A program made the translations under genes and the position numbers. A stretch of DNA of 62,799 nucleotides, filler included, from Collodictyon triciliatum (lineage: Eukaryota): the NCBI GenBank assembly GCA_043381765.1. It is 30 parts of 30 records of this genome, joined end to end, with 100 filler letters (N's around TTAATTAATTAA, not from the genome) between each part and the next. Parts side by side here need not be neighbours in the genome. Positions count along the whole stretch, not along the records: positions 24,453 to 26,434 come from JBHJMP010009775.1; 29 more parts are not named here. One strand, 5' to 3'. Below are positions 24,718-25,465 of this stretch, piece after piece. The notes under the pieces are model-generated. The model was not told the origin of the DNA, ran no database searches, and saw only the letters and a program-made list of their open reading frames with translations. Position 1 is the first letter of the stretch; every line of letters starts with the position of its first letter.

Positions 24718-25465
24718 AAAAAAATGTGATTCATGTAAATCAGACATAAAATGTACTTCTTTGGATTGACTTTGACGTCATACTCGATACCACTAACAAT
24801 ATTGCTGGGAATGATATGATGCAAATGCATTATAGCCCATTCTTTATATTGTTCCGGTATGTCGAGTTTCTTGAAGATGGCTTTTTTAACTTTCGTAACT
24901 CTGCCTTTTTAATAGCTTCCGTCATATTCTCATCTTTAGGGACTGGTTGATTTATAAAGTGCAGTAACCTCTTTACAAAATGGTCCTTGATGTTGTTACG
25001 ATAAGCTTTTAACATTTGCTTCGCCAAGTACGGTAATACATGAGACAGTCTAACCAACGGAAAGCGTTCTTCTCGGGACAAAAGGAATCGAAAATCATTC
25101 AGATAAATAGTCATCGTGTCATCTCTCAAACCTGGATTATTTTTTTTAATCTTGTGGGTCTATCTTGTGAGACTATTCCGACTGTCTTTAAAGCGTACAG
25201 AAAAAAACTTTTCATCGATTGTTGGGGGTTGTTGTGATTTCAATGTGTAACATCTTGCAAACAGATAAGTCTCGGTAACCAAATTATGACACAATAAAAC
25301 CGTATCGTTGATTTGTTATAGTCATCCGCATTCTTTACAATCGTCTTTAGAGATGTTTTCACATTTTGATAGTGTGGTTTTACAGACTTTAGATTCTCAG
25401 ACTCAAGACGTTTTCTTTCCTTCTTATGAAAGTCTTTGTTTTACTTTTTCCTTTGGAAAACTACC
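24718..25465 (-). pseudogene. Fanzor1/TnpB-like RNA-guided nuclease, N-terminal ~240 codons, frameshifted
   Basis: Conceptual translation across frameshifts: YQNVKTSLKTIVK../INDTVLLCHNLVTETYLFARCYTL..IDEKFF/LYALKTVG../LPYLAKQMLKAYRNNIKDHFVKRLLHFIN../HIIPSNIVSGIEYDVKVNPKKYILCLIYMNHIF. These motifs occur in the order I recall for Fanzor1 N-termini. RuvC is not present in the contig. Confidence 0.75.

Follow-up and report, generated by a model that had tools for sequence, protein, structure and literature searches.

Fanzor1 proteins are eukaryotic homologues of TnpB and act as omegaRNA-guided RuvC DNA endonucleases. By 2013, Fanzor1 genes and decayed copies of such genes had been recorded in at least 26 eukaryotic genomes and in 18 large DNA viruses (PMC3627910), and two later reports state that Fanzor1 proteins are RNA-guided nucleases (PMC10432273, PMC10530073). 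[quoted passage not shown] The same study defined the Fanzor/TnpB motif D-x(125,275)-[TS]-[TS]-x-x-C4-x(5,50)-RD, together with a glycine and a glutamate (G500/E536) specific to Fanzor1.

The locus presented here is located in a window of 62,799 nucleotides from the Collodictyon triciliatum assembly GCA_043381765.1, the window being the whole stretch of DNA that was analysed. This locus very probably holds the 5' part, decayed and interrupted by a 5'-truncated retroelement, of a single copy from a multi-copy Fanzor1 transposable-element family (Table 1). About 30 pieces, mostly of about 2 kb, make up the window, joined by 60 N-runs of 44 bases that are paired around the linker TTAATTAATTAA, and simple repeats terminate many of these pieces. 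As the window is a chain of unrelated contigs of about 2 kb, the genes on neighbouring pieces are uninformative about the Fanzor locus, which lies on the piece 24453-26434, itself a contig of about 2 kb (1982 bases).

The other pieces encode a protein kinase, a GPS-motif protein, leucine-rich repeats (LRRs), a TsaD/Kae1 fragment and a guanylate-cyclase fragment. The Atlas clusters closest to the kinase ORF are spread over Chlorophyta, viruses, Chordata and Haptophyta, and the host is a eukaryote that may be ciliated or flagellated. The end of an ORF at 19471-20016 (minus strand) shows a sub-threshold match to the TTC21/IFT139 N-terminal ARM repeat (E 8.9e-9, 35.8 vs 40 bits), which is the sole hint of a cilium or flagellum. 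At about 27166-28400 (minus strand), a putative thymidylate-kinase-like gene was recognised by eye as four exon-like pieces separated by gaps of about 150-300 nt, with no sign of a frameshift. The region 8361-10348 has a G+C content of about 0.51, compared with about 0.25-0.44 elsewhere, and long low-complexity Gly/Ala/Arg/Pro-rich ORFs on both strands; its origin may be foreign, or it may represent a GC-rich repeat. Neither Rfam families at gathering score nor tRNAs were found in the whole window.

Table 1. Features of the contig that carries the Fanzor1 relic (positions in the window).
Feature	Position	Strand	Basis
Fanzor1 pseudo-ORF, approximately the N-terminal 263 codons (P0001 residues 1 to ~263, before RuvC)	24640..25425	-	alignment, tblastn, profile matches
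Codon opposite P0001 Met1, AAG	25423..25425	-	alignment; P0001 Met1 assumed to be the true start
Frameshift 1, short A/T run, one base short	25311..25319	-	alignment and other copies
Frameshift 2, 7-nt homopolymer (A7 on the plus strand), one base too many	25201..25207	-	alignment
Frameshift 3, 8-nt homopolymer (T8 on the plus strand), one base too few	25140..25147	-	tblastn, alignment
Frameshift 4, 6-nt homopolymer	24882..24887	-	position refined with the P0153 and P0154 alignment
Frameshift 5, 7-nt homopolymer	24718..24724	-	alignment, P0153/P0154, public contigs
C-terminal zinc-binding (zf-RVT) part of a retroelement ORF2, with one frameshift of its own; abuts the Fanzor ORF and reaches the contig end	24453..24639	-	likeness to P0152
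Non-coding upstream part of the same repeat unit	25426..26302	-	bridging contigs of other copies
(TTTATTGA)n microsatellite, contig end	26324..26434	.	repeat search

With regard to the identity of the relic, its longest frame piece (24830-25159, 109 aa) retrieved one longer protein in a word-index search, the 648-aa ENA protein P0001 (E 4.5e-18). In a frameshift-tolerant alignment, positions 25422 to 24613 align with residues 2-273 of P0001 with 158 identities out of 266 (59%), five frameshifts and no in-frame stop, this last figure being partly built in because the alignment prefers frameshifts over stops. When P0001 was compared with the window by tblastn, the contig 24453-26434 was matched at E 2e-36 and none of the other pieces was matched. 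Among the 177,635 distinct sequences of the PDB, P0001 matches three Fanzor1 chains, namely GtFz1 (9cer, 2.1e-28), PpFz1 (9cf0, 2.7e-24) and SpuFz1 (8gkh, 3.7e-23); the next match is myoglobin (E 0.38), and no TnpB or Cas12 chain appears at E <=10. The 109-aa frame piece alone matches GtFz1 (E 8.9e-4).

The family to which P0001 belongs is large, with 3147 representatives at E <=1e-3 and 537 at E <=1e-30 in an exhaustive HMMER search. By tblastn, 120 of 151 family proteins (the 150 listed and P0001) match the contig at E <=1e-3. A profile, A1, was built without the relic from 25 mostly full-length family proteins, hand-picked from the top 33 with short fragments omitted, and it matches SpuFz1 (8gkh) at 1.4e-85 over profile positions 4-606. 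Among the 2005 six-frame pieces of the window, five frame pieces of the relic are colinear on this profile, at positions 4-38, 40-85, 97-182, 176-238 and 242-268, with E-values of 0.0019, 6.8e-8, 3.9e-15, 2.8e-14 and 0.005, and no other piece matches below E 0.1. The comparison by frameshift-aware, tblastn and HMM methods that had been proposed as a check of the repaired protein is therefore significant, and the Fanzor1 identity put forward in the original prediction agrees with the fact that the three Fanzor1 proteins of solved structure are the only nucleases that P0001 matches.

The residues that are invariant or nearly so in the 25 relatives are D364 (in DPGK), G521, E555, T558/S559, C562, C565, C587, C590 and R603-D604, E555 presumably being the catalytic glutamate. 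The three that stand for the RuvC catalytic residues, D364, E555 and D604, are invariant in all 25. Judged by sequence, the motif kept by these relatives is the Fanzor/TnpB motif of Bao and Jurka, whose G500/E536 probably equate with G521/E555 of the family. Pfam returned nothing relevant for four frame pieces of the relic; P0001 itself shows a sub-threshold match to Cas12f1-like_TNB (E 0.11) and has the precomputed family assignment PF26935 (DUF8286). At the sequence level, the Fanzor1 assignment of the relic can be considered secure.

All the peptide strings quoted in the original prediction are present, on the minus strand and in four overlapping frames: KTSLKTI and LYALKT in the frame 25240-25440, INDTV..HNLV..TYLF and IDEKFF in the frame 25160-25315, LPYLAKQM..NNIKDHF..FIN in the frame 24830-25159, and YDVKVNPKKYILCLIYMN in the frame 24543-24908. 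The extent initially given, 24718-25465, was roughly right and had to be shifted at both ends: the Fanzor homology reaches about 80 nt further downstream, through 'KLLQPIPITANTPCYITLDTAC', and the upstream 40 nt lie beyond the in-frame stop at 25441-25443. The description of the locus as an N-terminal half holds as well. By tblastn and profile, the homology stops at P0001 residue ~263-273 and the RuvC catalytic residues are absent from the window, so the locus is a Fanzor1-derived fragment and not a working member of the family. The [TS]-[TS]-x-x-C4 zinc finger and the RD were not found on the contig, nor was a C-terminal family match found anywhere in the window. The contig ends inside the retroelement, without the Fanzor 3' part, the omegaRNA region or the right end of the element.

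The relic belongs to a multi-copy repeat. We compared it with four public runs (X1-X4), two of which are coded organisms from a single study, the others being a subsurface and a freshwater metagenome. No public run contains more than 0.10 of the sampled words of the piece, and none of the runs listed as containing such words is recorded as RNA. At a threshold of 80% likeness, 60, 325, 313 and 97 contigs of X1-X4, respectively, fall on the 1982 bases of the piece and cover 24453-26328. Most of them are 80-95% alike, and between 0 and 23 per run are at least 99% alike. Two ENA fragments, P0153 and P0154, are 79% (108/136) and 81% (113/139) identical to the relic. These hundreds of diverged contigs and the two fragments indirectly support the earlier suggestion of a Fanzor family in this genome.

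The repeat extends upstream of the ORF. Contigs of other copies bridge the ORF start and the upstream DNA (25336-25751, 25427-25808 and 25699-26067), and at least ~650 nt upstream therefore belong to the repeat unit. The one indication of its end, which may lie near 26302, is a pile-up of loose contig ends at this position (10 and 7). No ORF, Pfam match or Rfam match was found in 25426-26302, and convincing TIRs, element ends or a target-site duplication were not found on the contig. The sole Rfam hit on the contig was a sub-threshold MIR408 match over simple repeats. Introns upstream of the ORF were considered on account of joints in X2 and X3 from 25461 to 25569, 25653 and 26283, and were rejected: the ends are not GT..AG on the gene strand, and at least one of the joints is partly an alignment effect, as the letters between its sides resemble 25631-25648. 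One 151-nt contig of X1, the subsurface metagenome, is identical to 25609-25759, with no other letters, which indicates that the organism, a very close relative or the repeat is present in the subsurface sample.

The reading frame of the relic has decayed. Frameshifts 2 to 5 occupy all four homopolymer runs of at least 6 nt in the 810-nt ORF region, and frameshift 1 lies in a short A/T run. Frameshifts 2 and 3 together throw about 60 nt ('FFLYALKTVGIVSQDRPTRL') out of frame. The position of frameshift 4 was about 10-20 nt off in the frameshift-tolerant alignment with P0001, and the alignment with P0153 and P0154 refined it. At frameshift 1, other copies carry one more T and read ...Y-N-K-I-N-D-T...; among the differences listed, the extra T behind 25311 is found in 3, 3 and 6 contigs of X1, X2 and X3, and one base fewer at 24719, which is the in-frame state at frameshift 5, in 6, 2 and 1 contigs of X2, X3 and X4. 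In P0153 and P0154, which have one base fewer at frameshift 5, a single frame spans the sites of frameshifts 4 and 5.

Homopolymer read errors in a small contig of low coverage would leave such a pattern just as slippage mutations would, and the pattern speaks for another explanation, in which the locus is an intact or nearly intact Fanzor1 gene, the frameshifts are homopolymer read errors and the switch at 24639 is a chimera of two repeats. That four of the five frameshifts fall in the only four runs of at least 6 nt, that the 266 codons contain no in-frame stop, that contigs of about 2 kb end in simple repeats, and that frameshifts 1, 4 and 5 are absent from some other copies (among the differences listed and in P0153/P0154) are all in line with it. 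However, at 24719 and 25311 more than half of the depth of X2 and X3 has the same length as the relic, so these states are not unique to the source assembly. Nor do read errors in homopolymers explain the substitutions. Among the differences listed, at least 19 ORF sites are such that nearly all other copies differ from the relic, and 15 of these 19 differences are non-synonymous in the frame of the relic, versus four synonymous ones. Taking the letter found in the other copies brings back the P0001 residue at nine or more of the 19 sites, among them those of the nearly invariant T140, F107 and P221, and P0153 and P0154 carry the same residues as the other copies at these private-change sites. 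The 4:15 ratio of synonymous to non-synonymous changes looks like neutral drift of the relic copy. Moreover, there is no ATG at the homologous start, nor any in-frame ATG between the AAG codon and the stop five codons upstream. We consider an intact gene to be unlikely.

The frameshifts of the decayed copy are probably mutations rather than read errors. The junction with the retroelement, the absence of the start codon and the non-synonymous changes private to this copy lead us to argue that it is dead whatever the run lengths are, and the term relic proved apt in view of its frameshifts, lost start codon, private substitutions and truncation. An intact element would encode a protein of about 650 aa that binds an omegaRNA produced from the element's 3' end and cuts matching DNA, a molecular function that we infer from characterised relatives. 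With about 263 codons, five +/-1 frameshifts, no homologous start codon and drifted conserved residues, the relic copy would be incapable of cutting, and a same-orientation 5'-truncated retroelement would interrupt it after 'LDTAC'.

These are the last Fanzor residues, ending at 24640, and the change from Fanzor to zf-RVT homology occurs at 24637-24640. The remainder of the contig, from 24639 on, reads 'ALLLNISNRELWIGARVAHAATTSPECTMCHSGDD' on the same strand and then, past one frameshift, 'IEHTFVKCSLAQKVTESTHKILSELD'. The two retroelement pieces are 71% (over 52 aa) and 93% (over 27 aa) identical to P0152, a 163-aa fragment whose sole Pfam domain is zf-RVT (PF13966; 33.0 bits versus a cut-off of 27.5, E 1e-7). 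The piece 24453-24639 alone matches zf-RVT weakly (E 0.15), and its likeness to P0152 identifies it as a zf-RVT retroelement ORF2 tail. This retroelement is presumably a non-LTR retrotransposon, the usual home of zf-RVT.

A second zf-RVT copy at 38475-38841 (plus strand) is 84% identical to P0152 over 122 aa and has two in-frame stops and a different 5' end, and a zf-RVT remnant of the same retroelement family is found at 39211-39321 (minus strand). The starting points of these copies differ, as is typical of retroelements truncated at the 5' end. The DNA at 38475-38629 is 91% identical to the retroelement of the relic over 155 nt, and the copies at 24453-24639 and 38475-38841 both start downstream of the reverse-transcriptase part of ORF2.

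Loose contig ends at 24639 in X2-X4 represent the retroelement continuing into its own sequence. In two X4 contigs, the Fanzor sequence continues past 24639, with the hand translation L-I-C-L-L-V compared with L-I-D-L-L-V in P0001. No public contig of X1-X4 bridges the 24639/24640 junction. The simplest reading is that the Fanzor ORF was hit by a 5'-truncated retroelement, which lies in the same orientation as the ORF, and such an insertion is more probable than a joining by misassembly; an assembly chimera is conceivable, the junction being in repeated DNA of a 2-kb contig. The C-terminal half may lie in the genome beyond the retroelement, so that 'N-terminal half only' describes the contig.

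Relatives of P0001 for which the DNA is available were sought in metagenome contigs with a five-sequence alignment, which gave 11 loci (L001-L011); P0001 as a lone query found no related loci in the metagenome or viral contig sets. Six of the 11 loci (L001-L005 and L009) exhibit a DDE_3/HTH transposase upstream on the other strand, three (L006, L007 and L010) are too short to judge, and L008 and L011 show no match. L001, L003, L004 and L005 have in common a 3.3-kb unit with TIRs of about 32 bp and unrelated flanks. In this unit, for example 3628-6948 of L004 and 3637-6952 of L005, the Fanzor1 ORF is oriented divergently from the transposase and ends about 45 nt before the right repeat.

These closest intact loci raise the question of whether the locus is a remnant of an integrated giant-virus genome (endogenous Nucleocytoviricota) and not of a cellular transposon family. 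The contigs of L004 and L005 measure 173 kb and 254 kb, and the neighbours there are an mRNA-capping enzyme, a ribonucleotide reductase small chain, a glycosyltransferase and a helicase-like ORF; contigs of this type are probably giant-virus contigs. The Atlas clusters nearest to P0001 are also 92-100% viral where taxa are recorded, with Nucleocytoviricota being the commonest. Nevertheless, the identity of these giant-virus-like relatives to P0001 is no more than 44-47%, and to the relic it is lower still, the relic and the non-coding DNA upstream of it are represented in hundreds of diverged contigs, which is the behaviour of a transposon, no viral gene is present on the contig 24453-26434, and a host-type retroelement invaded the Fanzor copy. 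The features of the relatives' elements are also absent from the window, where the best tblastn match to the DDE_3 transposase had an E-value of 2.9 (both transposases used as queries) and the TIR gave 0 matches at <=3 mismatches. An integrated viral genome thus appears even less likely than an intact gene. Chance or compositional similarity in AT-rich DNA has nothing but the low G+C content in its favour and is negligible, as it is refuted by the tblastn E-value of 2e-36 and by five colinear profile matches where the rest of the window yields nothing below E 0.1.

The decayed copy of a transposable-element family is thus retained as the explanation of this locus. It is possible, though we regard it as doubtful, that the family is still alive, with an intact Fanzor1 protein of about 650 aa and a working omegaRNA elsewhere in the genome, forming a distinct subfamily whose nearest intact kin are on giant-virus mariner-like elements. 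In accordance with this possibility, the in-frame state is found in other copies at three of the five frameshift sites, and other copies keep the conserved residues and pass the truncation point. If it were true, no full-length database protein would be more than ~60% identical to the subfamily, and recent Fanzor1 traffic between giant viruses and a freshwater eukaryote would be implied. Otherwise, the locus is an ordinary relic of an already well-known kind, of little importance beyond annotation. The appropriate annotation is a Fanzor1 pseudogene fragment that a retroelement interrupts, and the locus flags a repeat family with possible intact members.

Among the known systems, bacterial TnpB (IS200/IS605, IS607) and Fanzor2 are distant homologues via the C-terminal RuvC/zinc-ribbon half (PMC3627910). 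The relic comprises the N-terminal half only, which is the part that is highly diverged between TnpB/Fanzor groups (Bao and Jurka 2013, PMC3627910). The elements of L001, L003, L004 and L005 carry Fanzor1 proteins of the same subfamily, encoded by intronless single ORFs and 44-47% identical to P0001 over residues 3-642. In these 3.3-kb elements, a DDE_3 transposase gene lies on the opposite strand some 320 nt upstream, and TIRs of about 32 bp are present, whereas the window exhibits neither. L009 carries the transposase and a more distant version. Like SPu-1-type elements, the repeat of the relic is multi-copy, with a single recognisable Fanzor1 ORF and no adjoining transposase ORF on the contig; unlike SPu-1 as described in PMC3627910, it exhibits a longer non-coding upstream part of about 650-880 nt.

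In contrast to the solved Fanzor1 proteins, namely 9cer of Guillardia theta, 9cf0 of Parasitella parasitica and 8gkh of Spizellomyces punctatus, the relic is limited to about 263 codons, is frameshifted, and is without RuvC, zinc ribbon and omegaRNA region on the contig. Its identity to them is low, with one piece matching directly at E 8.9e-4. Nonetheless, the same series of N-terminal blocks is observed, including '..SHVL.Y....L.AY.NNI..HF.K....FI..' and 'YD.K.NP..Y.P.M...N', which are common to the relic and the solved proteins. The family around the relic exhibits the full-length architecture of the solved Fanzor1 proteins, including DPGK, the [TS][TS]-C4 zinc ribbon and RD.
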